Of a stretch of 20,669 nucleotides of DNA, positions 2,366 through 14,479 are shown piece by piece. The stretch is from Candidatus Saganbacteria bacterium. Lineage in GTDB: Bacteria > Margulisbacteria > WOR-1 > O2-12-FULL-45-9. The position numbers and the translations under genes are program-made. The notes beneath the pieces were generated by a model that was not told where the DNA came from, ran no database searches, and was given only the letters and a program-made list of their open reading frames with translations. The stretch lies in contig JABMSE010000102.1 in NCBI GenBank assembly GCA_013204645.1, positions 1-20,669 on the forward strand, read 5' to 3'. Positions within the stretch are counted from its first letter, which is position 1, and each line of letters starts with the position of its first letter.

Positions 2366-4180
2366 ATGAAAAAAAATTTGAAGTGGTTAGCGATCATAGT
2401 TGCAGCAATTGTTGCCCTTCTGATAATTGGGGCAGTTGCCCTCCCCTTTTTCCTTCCCTTAGAAAAAATAAAGGATTTTACAACCTCCAAAATTTCAGAC
2501 GCCCTGGGCTGCGAAGTAGCGATTGAAAAAGTTTCCTTTAACCTTTTTTCCGGCATTAAACTTGAGGATATTTCAGTTGGAAATGCTCCGGGTTTCTCTA
2601 AAACCCCTTTTGTCAGGGCTAAAAGCCTTGATCTTCGTTACGCCTTCTGGCCTATATTTAGACGACAACTAATTGTAAAAGAAATAAGATTAGTTTCCCC
2701 ACAAATTTATATTGAAAAAAACGCTCAAGGTCAATTTAATTTCACAAGCTATAAGGCAAAAGACAAATATCCTGACAAGATCTATCCCGATGAGGAAGAT
2801 GCAGCCAAAGAGGACAGCTCCTCCGATAAAAAAGCGCCCTTTTCATTAATTATAGATGCTTTTTCGGTGCGGGATGGGACCATTACCTATTTTGACCAGG
2901 CCACCAATACTAAAAGTAAACTAAAAAACACCAATTTGACGATTTCTGGAATTACCCTTGCACTACTAAAACCGGTTAATCTCCATTTCAAAACCCTGGC
3001 GATTTATCAAGACAAACAAGTCCCGATTTCTCTGGCAGGAAAAATTGAAGTCGACCCCACAAAGAATGAACTCAAAATACCTTCCCTAGAACTAAACATT
3101 GCCGGAGAAAAAGCCAAAATAGAACTTACTATTTCAAACTGGAAAACCGGACCAGACATTAATTTTTCAATTTCCTCGAAAAAATTATCAATTGACCCAT
3201 TGCTGGCTATTTTTGCAGCTGGCGCCCCCAGCGATAAAAAAGCTGCTAAGCCCGGGGCAATTACCAAGGCCGTAAACAAAACTACCTCATCCCTGCCGTC
3301 TACGCTAGCGCTAAAAGGCAAGATTGATCTTGAAAACATCACTTTCCAAAAATTTAAAATTGATAAGCTTGATTTAGACATAAGACTTTTTAAGAAGTGG
3401 TTAGAATTGGAAATAAATGAGGTTGGGCTTTATGACGGGAAACTGTCCGGCACGGCACTAATTAAGCTTGTACCCGGACTCTCATATCAAATAAAAGATT
3501 TAACCCTGACCGGCTTTAATGCCACCCCCTTTGTAAACGCTCTGGTTGAAACGTTTTTAGTCGACAAACCGGTTTATAAGGATTTAATCGATAAGGTTTA
3601 CGGCAGATTAGATCTTAGCTTAAATCTTAGCGGGAGCGGAGTTGAGCCAGGCCCAGCTTTTGCGAATGCCGTTGCAAAAGGGAGTTTCACATTAACCGGC
3701 GGTGAAATCAAGCGCATAAAAACTTTAGCTGAAATTGGGACGCTGATTAATTCAAACACCTTGCAGGAAAACGTGAAATTTAAAGATTTGGGAGCAAGCT
3801 TTAGCTTAAGAAATAAGGTTCTTGAGATCAAAGATCTCAAGCTTGAGGACACAGATTTTTCCGCCCAATTCAGTGGCGGTGCCGATCTAGGCAACGGACA
3901 ATGGATGGCCGGCAACCGTCTTCTGGTCCGCCTTTCCCCAAGCCTTACCCAGGGTCTTCCTTCCCAGCTCAGCGTTTTTCGCGATGATTCTGGCTGGCTC
4001 AATCTTACCTTTGAGCTGACTGGAGCATTTAAAAACACGCGGCTTACCCCAATCTTAGCTACCCCAATCGAGAAAACAGTTGGAAAGCTAAAGATTAAGA
4101 TTGAAGCCCAAAAACTTGAGATTGAGAAAAAAGTTAAAGAAGAATTAGAGAAAAAGGCTAAAGAACTCCTCAACTTTTAA
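2366..4180 (+). CDS. AsmA-family outer-membrane assembly protein
   Basis: 604 aa. It has an N-terminal transmembrane anchor followed by a characteristic AsmA N-domain (VSFNLFSGIKLEDISVGN...LRYAFWPIFRRQLIVKEIRLVSPQIYIE). The body is long and beta-rich, and the C-terminus is a K/E coiled coil. Confidence 0.75.
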   Translation: MKKNLKWLAIIVAAIVALLIIGAVALPFFLPLEKIKDFTTSKISDALGCEVAIEKVSFNLFSGIKLEDISVGNAPGFSKTPFVRAKSLDLRYAFWPIFRRQLIVKEIRLVSPQIYIEKNAQGQFNFTSYKAKDKYPDKIYPDEEDAAKEDSSSDKKAPFSLIIDAFSVRDGTITYFDQATNTKSKLKNTNLTISGITLALLKPVNLHFKTLAIYQDKQVPISLAGKIEVDPTKNELKIPSLELNIAGEKAKIELTISNWKTGPDINFSISSKKLSIDPLLAIFAAGAPSDKKAAKPGAITKAVNKTTSSLPSTLALKGKIDLENITFQKFKIDKLDLDIRLFKKWLELEINEVGLYDGKLSGTALIKLVPGLSYQIKDLTLTGFNATPFVNALVETFLVDKPVYKDLIDKVYGRLDLSLNLSGSGVEPGPAFANAVAKGSFTLTGGEIKRIKTLAEIGTLINSNTLQENVKFKDLGASFSLRNKVLEIKDLKLEDTDFSAQFSGGADLGNGQWMAGNRLLVRLSPSLTQGLPSQLSVFRDDSGWLNLTFELTGAFKNTRLTPILATPIEKTVGKLKIKIEAQKLEIEKKVKEELEKKAKELLNF

Positions 4181-4181
4181 C

Positions 4182-4216
4182 GCAAGTTTTCGTCGCCAAA
4201 ACCCGATATATATAGT
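4182..4216 (+). promoter_or_regulatory. Promoter-like motif copy D: GCAAGTT-N15-CGATATATATAGT
   Basis: One of four copies with identical spacing. The others are at 6060, 17553 and 18863. It sits immediately after the asmA stop and 12 nt before the 4228 ATG. Confidence 0.5.
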
Positions 4217-7292: not shown

Positions 7293-7365
7293 GCCCGTGT
7301 AGCTCAGTTGGTAGAGCATTTCCATGGTAAGGAAAAGGTCGCCGGTTCAACTCCGGCCGCGGGCT
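7293..7365 (+). tRNA. tRNA-Thr (anticodon GGU). No encoded CCA.
   Basis: Cloverleaf: acceptor GCCCGTG/CGCGGGC, D-arm GCTC...GAGC, anticodon stem TTTCC/GGAAA with loop ATGGTAA (anticodon GGT), T-arm GCCGG-TTCAACT-CCGGC, discriminator T. Lying upstream of tuf, as is typical. Confidence 0.9.
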
Positions 7366-10052: not shown

Positions 10053-10848
10053 CAAACAAAAAACCATTGCTTCTCCTGTTCCTTTTTGTGGCATTGGCCT
10101 TCACTCCGGAAAAAACGTATCATTGCTGATTAGCCCGGCTTCGCCAAATGCCGGCGTATACTTCATTAAACAAGGAAAAAAGGTTCCCGCTCTGGCAAAT
10201 TGTGTTTCACAAACAAAAAGAGGAACAACGCTGGGCGGAATTTGTGTGGTTGAGCATCTCCTCTCGGCCGTTTATGCACTAGGCCTTGATAACCTCCAAA
10301 TTGAAATAGATGGAGATGAGGTCCCGGCTTTGGATGGAAGTGCGCTGCCTTTCGTTTTAGGCCTCGCCGCTGCCGGAATAGTTGAACAAAATACAGAAAA
10401 AGCCCCACTCTTTCTTTCCCGGCCTATTACACTCACTCAGGGAGAGGCTTCGCTTTCTGCTCTTCCCCATCATGGATTTAAAATCGATTTTATGGTAGAC
10501 TTCCCTTTTGTGGGGGAGCAAAGCTTTGGTTTTTGCTTAGAAGAAGAATCCTACAAAAAGGAAATCGCCCCCGCTAGAACGGTTGGGTATTTAGAAGAAT
10601 ACGAGGACCTAAAAAAAGAGGGTCTGGCTCAGGGCGCATCTCTTGAAAACGCACTGGTTATTTCAAAAAAAGGCTACGTTAACCAGCCACGTTTCAGAAA
10701 CGAAGTGGTGCGGCACAAGATTCTGGATTTAATCGGCGACCTTTCTTTGTCAGGGCGTCCATTAAGGGCTCACATTTTCGCCATTAAATCCGGGCATAAG
10801 CTAAATATCGAATTAGTAAGGAGGATATTAAACGCATGTCAGTGTTAG
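10018..10848 (+). CDS. lpxC: UDP-3-O-acyl-N-acetylglucosamine deacetylase
   Basis: Colinear with LpxC (GIGLHSGK...HLLSA...HKLN). ATG at 10018 has a GGAGA ribosome-binding site. The ORF track start at 10003 is also possible. It overlaps the end of the vanW-like gene. Confidence 0.88.
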
Positions 10849-12116
10849 GCATAAAAGAAATCCAAGAAATTATCCCCCACCGCTATCCTTTTCTTTTAAT
10901 TGACCGCATAATCGAGCTTGAAGAAGGGAAAAGAGCGGTTGCCATAAAAAATGTAACTATGAACGAGCCTTTTTTCCAGGGACATTTTCCCGACCACCCC
11001 ATAATGCCAGGCGTCCTAATTTGCGAAGCCATGGCTCAGGTTGGGGTTGTAATGGCCCTGCGCTCTTCAAAAACTGAAGGCAAAATCGTTTATTTTGCCG
11101 GTATTGATAAGGTGCGCTTTAGAAAGCCGGTTGTTCCTGGGGACCAATTGCGCCTGGAAGTAGAAACCCTGTGGCTGCGCGCGGCTCTGGGCAAAATGAA
11201 GGGTAAGGCCTTGGTTGATGGAGAAATTGTAGCCGAAGGGGAGTTTATGTTTTCTTTGGCCGATCGTGATGCGGGCGGAGCAATTATTCATCCAACCGCG
11301 ACAGTTGATCGAACAGCCAAGCTAGGTAAAAAAGTAGAAATTGGTGCACATGTTGTAATTGGGCCCGAGGTTGAAATTGGTGACAAAACAAAAATCGGCC
11401 CCCACTCTGTAATTGCGCGCTGGACCAAAATCGGAAAAGAAAATGATATCCATCAAGGGGTTAGCATCGGGGTTCCTCCGCAGGACTTAAAATATAAAGG
11501 GGAAAAGGGGCAAATCATTATTGGGGACAAAAACATCATCCGCGAATTTGTAACCATTCACCTTCCTTCCGGCGAGGGAAACAAAACTATACTCGGCAAT
11601 GAAAACTACATTATGGTCCATGCTCACATTCCGCACAATTGCAAAATCGGAAATCAAGTGGTAATTGGTGGCTACGTTGGTTTGGCTGGTTACACGGAAA
11701 TTGGCGACCAGGTAATCATTGGGGGCTTGGCCGGCATTCATCAATTTGTGCGCATTGGTCGCTTAACCATGGTAGGCGCGCAGTCAAAGGTTTTAAAAGA
11801 CGTTCCCCCTTTTATGTTAGTGGACGGTAATCCGGCACAACTCCGAGGAATAAATTCAATTGGCCTCCAGCGCAGAGGTGTTTCTTCTGATTCTATTTCC
11901 GAAATCAGAAAGGCCTTTAAGATAATCTATGAATCAGGAAACACAACAAAAGAGGCCGCCCTTGAGATAAAAAAGCGGCTGCGCCCCCTTCCCGAAATTG
12001 AAGAAATCCTTGCCTTCTTAAAATCCGAAAGTAAACGCGGGATCAGCAAAAAGACCGCCATTGACGTAGAAGAGGTTGATTTGTTGTTCCCAGAAATCCC
12101 AGAGCTTGGCATATGA
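10836..12116 (+). CDS. Fused 3-hydroxyacyl-ACP dehydratase (FabZ, about 145 aa) and UDP-GlcNAc(3N) O-acyltransferase (LpxA, about 270 aa)
   Basis: AGGAGG ribosome-binding site. The N-terminal half is a FabZ hot-dog fold ([11 protein letters not shown]...GHFP..PIMPGVL). A short linker DRDAGGA follows. The C-terminal half is LpxA with left-handed beta-helix hexapeptide repeats and a C-terminal helical domain. It is a single uninterrupted ORF. Confidence 0.9.
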
Positions 12117-13255
12117 AAATCATGATCTCGGCCGGAGAAGTCTCCGGCGATGTCCACGGAACTTATTTGGTTCGGGAGTTAAAAAAACTTTCTCCTGACT
12201 CCTACATCTTTGGTATGGGCTCTGAGAAACTCTTGGCCGAGGGCGTTGACGTAAAAGTTGATATAAGCCAGCGCGGCACGATTGGTGTTTTTGAAGTTCT
12301 GCCAAACCTTGTTCCCCTCTATTTTTCTTATCGCCAAATGATAGCTTTAATGAAAAAAGAAAAGCCGGACCTTCTTTTGCTGGTTGACTCCCAGGGCATA
12401 AACATGCCACTTGCCAAAGCTGCTAAAAAACTGGGCATAAAAACAGTTTATTATATTGCTCCGCAGGAATGGCTGTGGGGAACGAAAAGGGGAGTAAAAA
12501 AGGTTGCGGAAAGTATCAGTTTAATTGTTTCTATCTTTGAGAAAGAACACAACGCTTATAAAGAGGCTCAGGGTAACTCGGTTTATTTTGGGCACCCCTT
12601 ACTCGATATCGTTAAACCCGCTCTTTCAAAAGATGAGACGCGCAAAAAGTTTTTAGCAAGCACTGCCGGCCCGGTAATTAGCCTGTGCCCAGGTAGCCGC
12701 AGCCAAGAAATTCGAGGGTTGCTTCCAATTCTGCTGAGGGCTGGAGAATTAATTAAAAAAGAAATCCCCAATGCCCGCTTTTTAATCCCGGCTGCGTCAG
12801 CCAACATGATTAAAATGATTTTCTCCTACATTAACGAAGACTTTCGGCCTACGGCGGTCATCGGGCATACCTATGATATTTTGGCCGCTTCTGATCTAGC
12901 CATTTGCACCTCCGGCACAATTAACCTAGAGGCTTCCATCCTGGGAACTCCCAATATAATGGTGTATAAGCTTTCTCCTCTAACATATGTATTAGGAAAA
13001 TACGTTCTCAAAATTGGTGAGCGCCTTCCTTACTATAGTATGCCCAACCTATTGCTTGATCAGCGGGTAATTCCCGAGCTGGTCATGAACCAGGCCAATC
13101 CAAAAACGATTGCCGATTGTGCAATTTCAATCTTAAAAGACCATAAGCGCCAAGATGAGATGAAAAAATCATTTGCTAAACTTAAAAACAAACTCGGCTC
13201 CCCAGGCGTCATTTCTTCTGCGGCTAAATCTATTTCTGAATTTTCTTCTCTTTAG
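12113..13255 (+). CDS. lpxB: Lipid-A-disaccharide synthase
   Basis: 380 aa. The N-terminus [13 protein letters not shown] and the GT-B fold pattern are typical of LpxB. The start overlaps the previous stop (ATGA). Confidence 0.88.
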
Positions 13256-13350
13256 CTGTCCCGACGACATTAATATATTTGATAGTGGAATGTCGGGATC
13301 CCGTCCTTGGCGGGAAAATTTCGTAAACTGAAAATTTCAAAATCTTCGCA

Positions 13351-13363
13351 AAAAGTGAAATTT
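13351..13363 (+). promoter_or_regulatory. Shared upstream motif AAAAGTGAAATTT, about 41 nt upstream of the 187-aa gene start
   Basis: Identical 13-mer to 2093-2105 on the minus strand at the equivalent position. It is flanked by a related TGAAAATTTCA half-site. Confidence 0.45.
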
Positions 13364-13404
13364 TCCCCCAAATTTGTCGATAAAAGATATAGGAGGAATC
13401 ACAT

Positions 13405-13968
13405 ATGCGATCAGTAGGAAGACCTATGGCAAGCCGGGGCTCAAGTAGAACAGCCCCCCCGGCAAAACAAGTGGCTGTTCTAAGAACCAATAATAATACG
13501 TGGGGAATAAAGATTCGCGAAGGCACACGGCTTGGGATAACAAGAAACTTATCTGTTTTTGTTCTTAATGACCGGAAGCATTCGGATGTCATTGTTGAGC
13601 TAGAGTGTCGAAGAATTGCAAGCCAGCTTGTTTTAATGGTTAAGCCAATTAAGCCAGGAACTAGCATTAGGATAAATCAACCAAGTGCCCCTTCGCCCTT
13701 TAATCAAGAAACAACCTTGTCAAATACTCATGGTTCTACTCGCCCTCCCCAAATGCAGCTGGCATGGGATACAACTATTTCCGTTTCGCAAAATAATGCT
13801 GGGGGAAAAGAATCTCCAGGATTAATCAGACTAGAACTTGGCGACGATCCTGGTTTTTCTCGGGCACGCACTACATTAATAGAAAAAGCCGTTGCTGACA
13901 CAGTAGCTTCTCGCAATCGACACGTCTATCACGGGACACGACGTGGGCCCAACCTTAGGAATGGCTAA
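13405..13968 (+). CDS. Hypothetical protein, 187 aa. It is R/S/T/N-rich with an atypical composition for this genome.
   Basis: Canonical AGGAGG ribosome-binding site 8 nt upstream of the ATG. No family recognised. Its composition is unlike the K-rich neighbours, so the coding status is not certain. Confidence 0.45.
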   Translation: MRSVGRPMASRGSSRTAPPAKQVAVLRTNNNTWGIKIREGTRLGITRNLSVFVLNDRKHSDVIVELECRRIASQLVLMVKPIKPGTSIRINQPSAPSPFNQETTLSNTHGSTRPPQMQLAWDTTISVSQNNAGGKESPGLIRLELGDDPGFSRARTTLIEKAVADTVASRNRHVYHGTRRGPNLRNG

Positions 13969-14037
13969 AAATGATATTACAAAGAGCAACAGTGCCAATC
14001 GCAGCAAGGCGGGTGGGAACCTTTCGTCCGTTAACCA

Positions 14038-14436
14038 TTGTTTTGGTGGCCCGCGGACAACAAAAAAAAGGGGGGGGTGATTGCTGCTCTGTTCGCAAAA
14101 GGAATAGACGTTACCTCTCTTGGCCAAATTGGAATTAAAACTAAAAATGATCTTTCTGCTTTAAACGCTTTTCTTGATAGCAAAGAAAAACAAGGTTTAG
14201 ATCAACGGGTAAGAGAAAAGCTGGGTTTAATTGATGGGGTGGCGAAACTTATTCTTCCCTCCGGTACCACAATTTTCTATCGCTCTTCTTGCGCAGACGC
14301 AAATGGACGCCTTATAAAAGAGCTGCGTGCATTAGAGGACCAACGCCCGTGCCGCCCCGAAGAAGTTTTTAACACTCACTTATCCGGCCTTAAAACAGTT
14401 TCTTTAACTACTGGGGATTTTAGTTTACTTGCCTAG
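14038..14436 (+). CDS. Hypothetical ORF of 132 codons with no internal Met. It is possibly the 3' part of a phase-variable or frameshifted gene starting at ATG 13971.
   Basis: The ORF has only TTG (14038) or GTG (14077) as candidate starts. An ATG at 13971, 2 nt after the upstream stop, reads 35 codons and runs out of frame at the A8G8 tract. A 1-nt contraction of the tract would fuse the two into a protein of about 155 aa. Confidence 0.35.
   Translation: MFWWPADNKKKGGVIAALFAKGIDVTSLGQIGIKTKNDLSALNAFLDSKEKQGLDQRVREKLGLIDGVAKLILPSGTTIFYRSSCADANGRLIKELRALEDQRPCRPEEVFNTHLSGLKTVSLTTGDFSLLA
14062..14077. repeat. Homopolymeric tract A8G8
   Basis: Seen directly: CAAAAAAAAGGGGGGGGT. It lies at the junction between two reading frames: ATG 13971 in frame 0, and ORF 14038-14436 in frame +1. 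Confidence 0.9.
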
Positions 14437-14459
14437 TTCTTTCCTGCTCTTTAAAAAAA

Positions 14460-14468
14460 TGTTATAAT
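14460..14468 (+). promoter_or_regulatory. Extended -10 TGTTATAAT, 12 nt upstream of the aminotransferase ATG, implying a near-leaderless transcript
   Basis: Seen directly. There is no Shine-Dalgarno sequence between the -10 and the ATG at 14480. Confidence 0.4.
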
Positions 14469-14479
14469 ACCCACTTGTT

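Follow-up and report, generated by a model that had tools for sequence, protein, structure and literature searches.

A small orphan gene lodged in the lipid A cluster of a Candidatus Saganbacteria genome owes its split reading frame to one surplus base within a lineage-specific homopolymer tract of eight A followed by eight G, as sequence comparison with a relative confirms. We tentatively regard the allele seen here as the OFF state of a stochastic, reversible homopolymer switch, and we put the probability of this reading at roughly 0.45. That the sole lesion in a constrained gene lies in this mutable tract counts in favor of such a switch, as does the presence of two G/C runs in the same two-gene cassette (the G8 of the split gene and a C7 of its upstream neighbor), neither of which occurs in the relative.

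A two-gene insert between lpxB and gnnB

The window, i.e., the whole stretch of 20,669 nucleotides that was analysed, is a contig of a Candidatus Saganbacteria metagenome-assembled genome (MAG) and encodes, in order, EF-Tu, a VanW-like protein, LpxC, a FabZ-LpxA fusion, LpxB, two hypothetical ORFs (NCBI HQ596_05105 and HQ596_05110, hereafter gene 1 and gene 2), gnnB, gnnA and RseP. The gene named gnnB here is a DegT-type aminotransferase and the one named gnnA a Gfo/Idh/MocA oxidoreductase, for which the closest model is UDP-GlcNAc 3-dehydrogenase, with a score below the cut-off of that model. FabZ and LpxA form a single 426-aa fusion (10836-12116), a fusion that is found in all close relatives recovered (73-80% identity), and the sole tRNA is located at 7293-7365.

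Scans with GnnB and LpxB gathered ca. 25 syntenic loci from relatives (LpxB 57-75% identical). In nine of them (L085, L086, L094, L098, L099, L100, L101, L104 and L111) lpxB is directly followed by gnnB-gnnA-rseP with a spacer of 46-211 nt, and in the window 1224 nt separate the lpxB stop from the gnnB ATG, in line with the 1.2-kb insert relative to the usual arrangement that a sequence-only reading of this DNA had claimed. Three other loci carry unrelated insertions at the same junction, i.e., a 720-aa TPR protein (L005, 2753-4915), an aldolase-like gene (L088, 5148-6110, minus strand) and a protein-kinase-like gene together with a small zinc-ribbon ORF (L112, 5132-6217, minus strand), which points to the lpxB-gnnB slot as a hot-spot of repeated insertion within the lipid A cluster. 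The two-gene cassette itself was found in none of these junctions (nine short, three with other inserts), and the matches of its genes to the inserts of L005, L088 and L112 and to an orphan ORF of locus L089 (see below) were all insignificant. A gene 1 profile retrieved no further copies from metagenome_contigs and genome_contigs, collections that evidently hold neither the MAG nor the short JGI contigs, and a look-up of contigs encoding the 119-aa NCBI call for gene 2 (P0001) gave none. Judged from these sequences, the cassette is a lineage-specific 1.2-kb insert.

A TGnTATAAT motif is present 10-12 nt 5' of the gnnB ATG in the window and in every relative inspected. The window copy (TGTTATAAT, 14461-14469) stands 10 nt before ATG 14480, which has no Shine-Dalgarno (SD) sequence, and the motif was also seen in the lpxB-gnnB spacers of L086, L094, L098, L100, L101, L104 and L111. 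Such conservation suggests a dedicated gnnB promoter, extended -10-like, that would give rise to a leaderless or very short-leader mRNA. Given that the motif is kept in the window and in these relatives, the insertion point of the cassette falls between the end of lpxB and the gnnB promoter. The 1.2-kb cassette is bracketed almost exactly by an imperfect direct repeat of 14 nt (12/14 matching), with one copy at the end of lpxB (13241-13254, TTTTCTTCTCTTTA) and the other just past the gene 2 stop (14440-14453, TTTCCTGCTCTTTA); the insertion may have left this repeat behind, or it may be due to chance. Between 13100 and 14600, Rfam searches yielded no RNA family except a chance match to a miRNA model (E = 0.23), no terminator was found, and the sole promoter-consensus match was one minus-strand site.

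Gene 1 (13405-13968, plus strand) encodes a 187-aa orphan protein and is preceded by what had been described, correctly, as a textbook ribosome-binding site (AGGAGG, 13391-13396, 8 nt 5' of the ATG). This site is included in a conserved block of the upstream intergenic region of the cassette (13256-13404, plus strand), which in a DNA alignment with the relative's contig L003 reads AAAAAGTGAAATTT ... CGATAAA.GAT.TAGGAGGAA. A sigma-70 consensus scan of the plus strand upstream of gene 1 gave no match, and the promoter that we place there is putative, proposed from the conservation of this block. Among 5.8 billion proteins searched, the only homologue of gene 1 was P0003, of equal length and 71% identical, with a dN/dS of 0.28 against L003 (Nei-Gojobori, 184 codons). 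The codon-usage score of gene 1 (-0.02) is atypical in comparison with core genes (0.16-0.46), yet it is the best of the six frames. AF2 models of gene 1 (pLDDT 39.6) and of the fused gene 2 (pLDDT 31.8) were unusable, and neither product matched anything in Pfam, NCBIfam, PHROG, PADLOC or the PDB. Since no family or fold could be assigned to the products, their function gives no ground of its own for expecting a contingency gene here; a surface or LPS-related role of the cassette is a guess, for which the only hint is its position between lpxB and gnnB.

A homopolymer census located a tract of seven C in gene 1 (13454-13460, plus strand; codons 17-19, in frame, encoding part of TAPPA), which is not present in L003. 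A perfect inverted repeat with arms of 10 nt (13446-13455 and 13473-13482) has this C7 in its loop.

The split frame of gene 2 and its ancestral form

Gene 2 begins at ATG 13971, which lies, as had been claimed, 2 nt past the TAA of gene 1 (13966-13968). Its 5' segment, i.e., the ATG and the first 30 codons up to the tract (13971-14061, plus strand), is preceded by an SD-like AGGA at 13957-13960, 10 nt 5' of the ATG (GGAGG in L003), and both the stop/start junction (TAAAAATG) and the upstream SD are conserved between the window and L003. The frame opened by this ATG meets the tract at codon 31 and exits from it at codon 36. The sequence-only reading had this frame colliding with the tract, which it does, and gave it 35 codons, a figure that reaches only as far as the tract; the ORF continues to TAA 14136-14138 and has 55 codons in all. 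At the present tract length the predicted product is thus a truncated protein of 55 aa (13971-14138, plus strand), the post-tract tail of which (DCCSVRKRNRRYLSWPNWN) has no counterpart in L003.

The 3' segment is annotated as 119 codons from GTG 14077 (HQ596_05110; 14077-14436, plus strand). Its frame is open from 14035, with TTG 14038 as the first possible start, and we recovered the 14038-14436 frame as previously described, with 132 codons, no internal Met and a +1 position relative to the ATG 13971 frame. Its codon-usage score (0.29) is typical of the window genes (0.16-0.46). Deletion of one base does fuse the two frames as had been proposed, into a protein of 154 aa (ca. 155 aa in that proposal).

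The relative provides the ancestral state. P0003 is encoded on two short ENA contigs (L003 and L004), and L003 starts with the 3' end of lpxB, from which it follows that the cassette occupies the equivalent place in that lineage. The comparison of gene 2 concerns this one relative, L003, over the 77 codons at which its contig ends. There, gene 1 ends in the identical stop-AA-ATG arrangement, and the ORF from this equivalent ATG runs uninterrupted through all 77 codons. Its first ca. 21 residues match the ATG 13971 frame of the window (M.L.RA...A.RRVG.FR.L), and from residue 36 onwards it matches the window frame that follows the tract (.AAL.AKG...L...GI.TK.DL.ALN.FL.S.KQ.LDQ). A single tblastn segment, in a single L003 frame, spans residues 1-78 of the repaired window protein (E = 5e-18). 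L003 has no homopolymer at the junction, and shortening the window tract by one base leaves a linker of 15 residues, equal to that of L003. The continuous L003 ORF and the matching linker together establish that gene 2 was ancestrally one ORF of ca. 154 aa, and the proposed split of an ATG-initiated ORF by one nucleotide is borne out by this colinear frame. The frame break is the only lesion in an otherwise intact gene.

For gene 2, dN/dS against L003 (Nei-Gojobori) was 0.24 over the 20 N-terminal codons and 0.21 over the 42 post-tract codons, values that stem from two lineages only and thus do not separate recent relaxation from long-term constraint. Ratios of 0.2-0.3 in both genes of the cassette speak for purifying selection and hence for real genes. 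A word-indexed search with the fused gene 2 protein and a two-sequence profile returned only the protein itself and P0004, as did a full HMMER search of 1.84 billion representatives. P0004 is a 1482-aa DUF11 repeat surface protein, and its score adds up four identical weak stretches, each of 31 bits in pairwise comparison; this match is probably repeat-inflated and spurious.

Might the downstream half be a gene in its own right, with the C-terminal domain made from GTG 14077 or TTG 14038, the G run acting as an SD-like element and the locus representing a functional rearrangement? Both the NCBI and the JGI gene calls choose GTG 14077, and GGGGG can pair with the anti-SD. However, the GTG directly adjoins the G run or shares bases with it (spacing 0-2 nt), TTG 14038 has no SD, no credible or well-spaced SD for either start was found in the sequence, and the downstream frame is devoid of ATG codons. 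Moreover, the 20 conserved N-terminal residues would be lost, both lineages keep the ATG and the SD 10 nt before it, and in L003 the downstream ORF is present and starts from the equivalent ATG, i.e., it is neither absent nor independently initiated. We thus consider independent initiation very improbable. The current annotation of HQ596_05110, called as 119 aa from the GTG, is wrong or incomplete, as the real start would be ATG 13971 with a frameshift in between. Another candidate start, ATG 13961 ('MAKND...'), whose frame would be fused to the 3' segment by a +1 insertion or a -1 slippage, was rejected, as both ATG and frame are missing in L003.

The A8G8 tract and what it may mean for expression

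The tract had been placed accurately, with A8 at 14062-14069 and G8 at 14070-14077 (plus strand; AAAAAAAAGGGGGGGG, the same in L001 and L002). A dinucleotide-preserving shuffle gave an expectation of 0.14 matches for the tract when two mismatches were allowed, and the iid expectation for the exact A8G8 16-mer in the window was ca. 1e-5. Runs of at least six A are common in the window (49 vs 8.7 expected), long ones of G or C are rare, and the only runs of at least seven G or C in its 20.7 kb are this G8 and the C7 of gene 1, both inside the cassette. The tract falls in a linker of 15 codons that is neither conserved nor constrained between the window and L003 (pN 0.77), where a pure A8G7 encoding of QKKGGV has a chance of ca. 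1% given the codon usage of the window. Its length sets the frame: with 15 nt, both A7G8 and A8G7 encode the same peptide (QQKKGGV) within a 154-aa ORF, with the present 16 nt the frame is lost after the tract, and with 17 nt translation runs into TGA 14078-14080 after 36 aa. A one-base change would thus restore or abolish an ORF of 154 aa that is colinear with that of L003.

An exact-protein look-up of the 187-aa product led to two contigs from other JGI metagenomes, L001 (3300032738) and L002 (3300032608), which are 99.94% and 100% identical to the window, respectively. The tract is A8G8 in all three assemblies, i.e., in the 20.7-kb MAG/JGI contig, L001 and L002. The sole difference in L001 is a 1-nt deletion in lpxB (between positions 411 and 412 of L001; window 13009), outside homopolymers, which splits the gene calls into 156 and 71 aa and probably stems from faulty sequencing or assembly of a low-coverage contig, or else is a rare variant. 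This deletion reveals that L001 is a separate assembly and also that such assemblies are not free of indels.

If the tract were an artefact of sequencing or assembly, its true length would be 15 nt and the gene would be intact. Homopolymers are a classic source of indel errors, and the L001 deletion illustrates that indels do occur in such low-coverage assemblies. However, three contigs, assembled separately from different JGI samples, have the identical A8G8, a random error would not recur in this way, and these JGI assemblies are presumably short-read, a data type in which indel errors at 8-mers are rare. Three concordant assemblies make random sequencing error unlikely, and an artefact is in our view improbable.

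The same concordance sits well with another alternative, i.e., that gene 2 is a recent pseudogene, inactivated by a one-base homopolymer insertion, with an allele that is fixed or neutral and decaying, and with no meaningful switching. All three consensus assemblies have the out-of-frame length, with no tract-length polymorphism among them, and no protein of an in-frame (ON) allele was found in a collection of 15 billion proteins. Furthermore, the cassette is dispensable, being lineage-specific and missing in most relatives, and a G8 is tolerated in a core gene of these relatives. That G8 (3158-3165 in L085 and L099) is in frame and lies in the FabZ/LpxA linker of the fused fabZ-lpxA, a gene of the LPS pathway that is probably essential, and its tolerance in a core gene of the clade argues against extreme hypermutability of such runs. 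On the other side, the gene has one lesion only, placed precisely where the locus is most easily reverted, no stop has arisen in the 119 downstream codons (chance ca. 0.002, estimated at ca. 5% stops per codon), and downstream codon usage is normal. A recent pseudogene fits the data as well as phase variation does, and we hold it to be possible, at a probability well short of even.

The frameshift could also be bypassed during expression, by RNA polymerase slippage on A8 or G8 or by +1 ribosomal slippage on AAA-AAA-GGG-GGG, in which case the gene would be leaky and not switched. The mRNA can regain an intact frame when a disrupted ORF contains a slippage-prone A/T run (PMC1088944), and here either a transcript shorter by one base or a +1 shift of the ribosome would suffice. 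The sequence of the tract would permit perfect re-pairing of both tRNA-Lys and tRNA-Gly, and the SD-like AGGGGG inside it is presumably similar to the SD-like element that stimulates the +1 frameshift of prfB, which we count in favor of such a rescue. Nonetheless, the frameshift is not conserved, as the ORF of L003 is uninterrupted and has no tract, and an interruption that is not conserved is not a programmed, selected recoding site. The A run is 8 nt long, and A/T runs are typically selected against from 9 nt onwards (PMC1088944). There is also no slow codon and no stop codon in the A site (neither stop nor rare codon follows the tract), and the RNA of 14040-14140 has no stand-out structure (fold z = -0.67 vs shuffled controls). 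Programmed recoding is thus unlikely, transcriptional slippage on A8 may bring about some adventitious rescue, and expression despite the frameshift is, taken as a whole, hardly probable.

A candidate homopolymer switch in a presumably free-living lineage

We postulate the following for the mutable switch. The two orphan genes would form a translationally coupled operon that was inserted ahead of the gnnB promoter in one Saganbacteria lineage, with an ancestral gene 2 of full length read from ATG 13971. In the lineage of the window, the poorly conserved linker (codons 22-36) would then have gained a composite A/G homopolymer, and at 16 nt this tract would put the conserved C-terminal 119 codons out of frame and end translation early. 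As runs of eight G and eight A readily undergo slipped-strand mispairing, the loss of one base or the gain of two would open the full ORF and the gain of one would yield an even shorter product. It follows from this proposal that tract length should vary in the population and that switching should have a phenotypic consequence.

Such a switch would be akin to the polyG/polyC contingency loci of Campylobacter jejuni, Haemophilus influenzae, Neisseria and Helicobacter pylori. The likeness consists in a G8 placed in the 5' coding part, in a one-base change that toggles between full-length and truncated product (both OFF frames end soon after the tract), and in the adjacency to LPS (lipid A) genes, a frequent neighborhood of such loci. 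A tract of the same G8 length in cj1139 switches at a high rate in C. jejuni (PMC3401435). Unlike these loci, the one described here belongs to an uncultivated, presumably free-living Saganbacterium and not to a host-adapted pathogen, and it has a composite A8G8, an orphan product and one tract length in three of three assemblies.

Two other kinds of interrupted genes are similar in part. As in the poly(A)/poly(T) genes rescued by slippage (Baranov et al. 2005, PMC1088944), the ORF is broken exactly at an A run and the loss of one transcript base restores the frame, whereas here the run of 8 nt is below the usual threshold of 9 nt and the break is not conserved in the relative. As in the homopolymer frameshift pseudogenes or artefacts of MAGs, a single-base homopolymer break has led to annotation as a shortened hypothetical protein, whereas here the break occurs in three assemblies, the ancestral frame was checked against a relative, and both halves are under purifying selection. 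Poly(A) genes of endosymbionts are further cases of frameshifted genes that are rescued by transcriptional slippage.

Elsewhere, locus L089 has an in-frame G9 (2925-2933) at codons 11-13 of a 434-aa orphan ORF (2895-4199), which has a DUF4143/AAA_14 ATPase gene on either side and lies 1.3 kb past lpxB, on a Saganbacteria-like contig. The N-terminus of this orphan (MISTGGPLRTGGGTTPPSPA) is loosely like that of the 187-aa protein (MRSVGRPMASRGSSRTAPPA), at a level that is not significant (E = 0.53).

A more far-reaching version of the switch would make the whole cassette a contingency module, in which the two co-transcribed genes have each gained a lineage-specific G/C homopolymer close to the 5' end, and in which C7 and A8G8 slip independently and give combinatorial ON/OFF states of an envelope-associated function, e.g., under phage or grazer pressure. 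We regard this as unlikely; if it were true, classic pathogen-style phase variation would extend to Saganbacteria, i.e., to a free-living candidate-phylum bacterium. Were gene 2 only a pseudogene or an artefact, it would be an ordinary feature of a MAG. If, however, the tract length does vary, this locus would be a case of homopolymer phase variation in an uncultivated, non-pathogenic lineage (Saganbacteria/Margulisbacteria), inside a lipid A cluster and in an orphan protein family, and a true switch of this kind would help to ask how widespread contingency loci are outside host-adapted bacteria.
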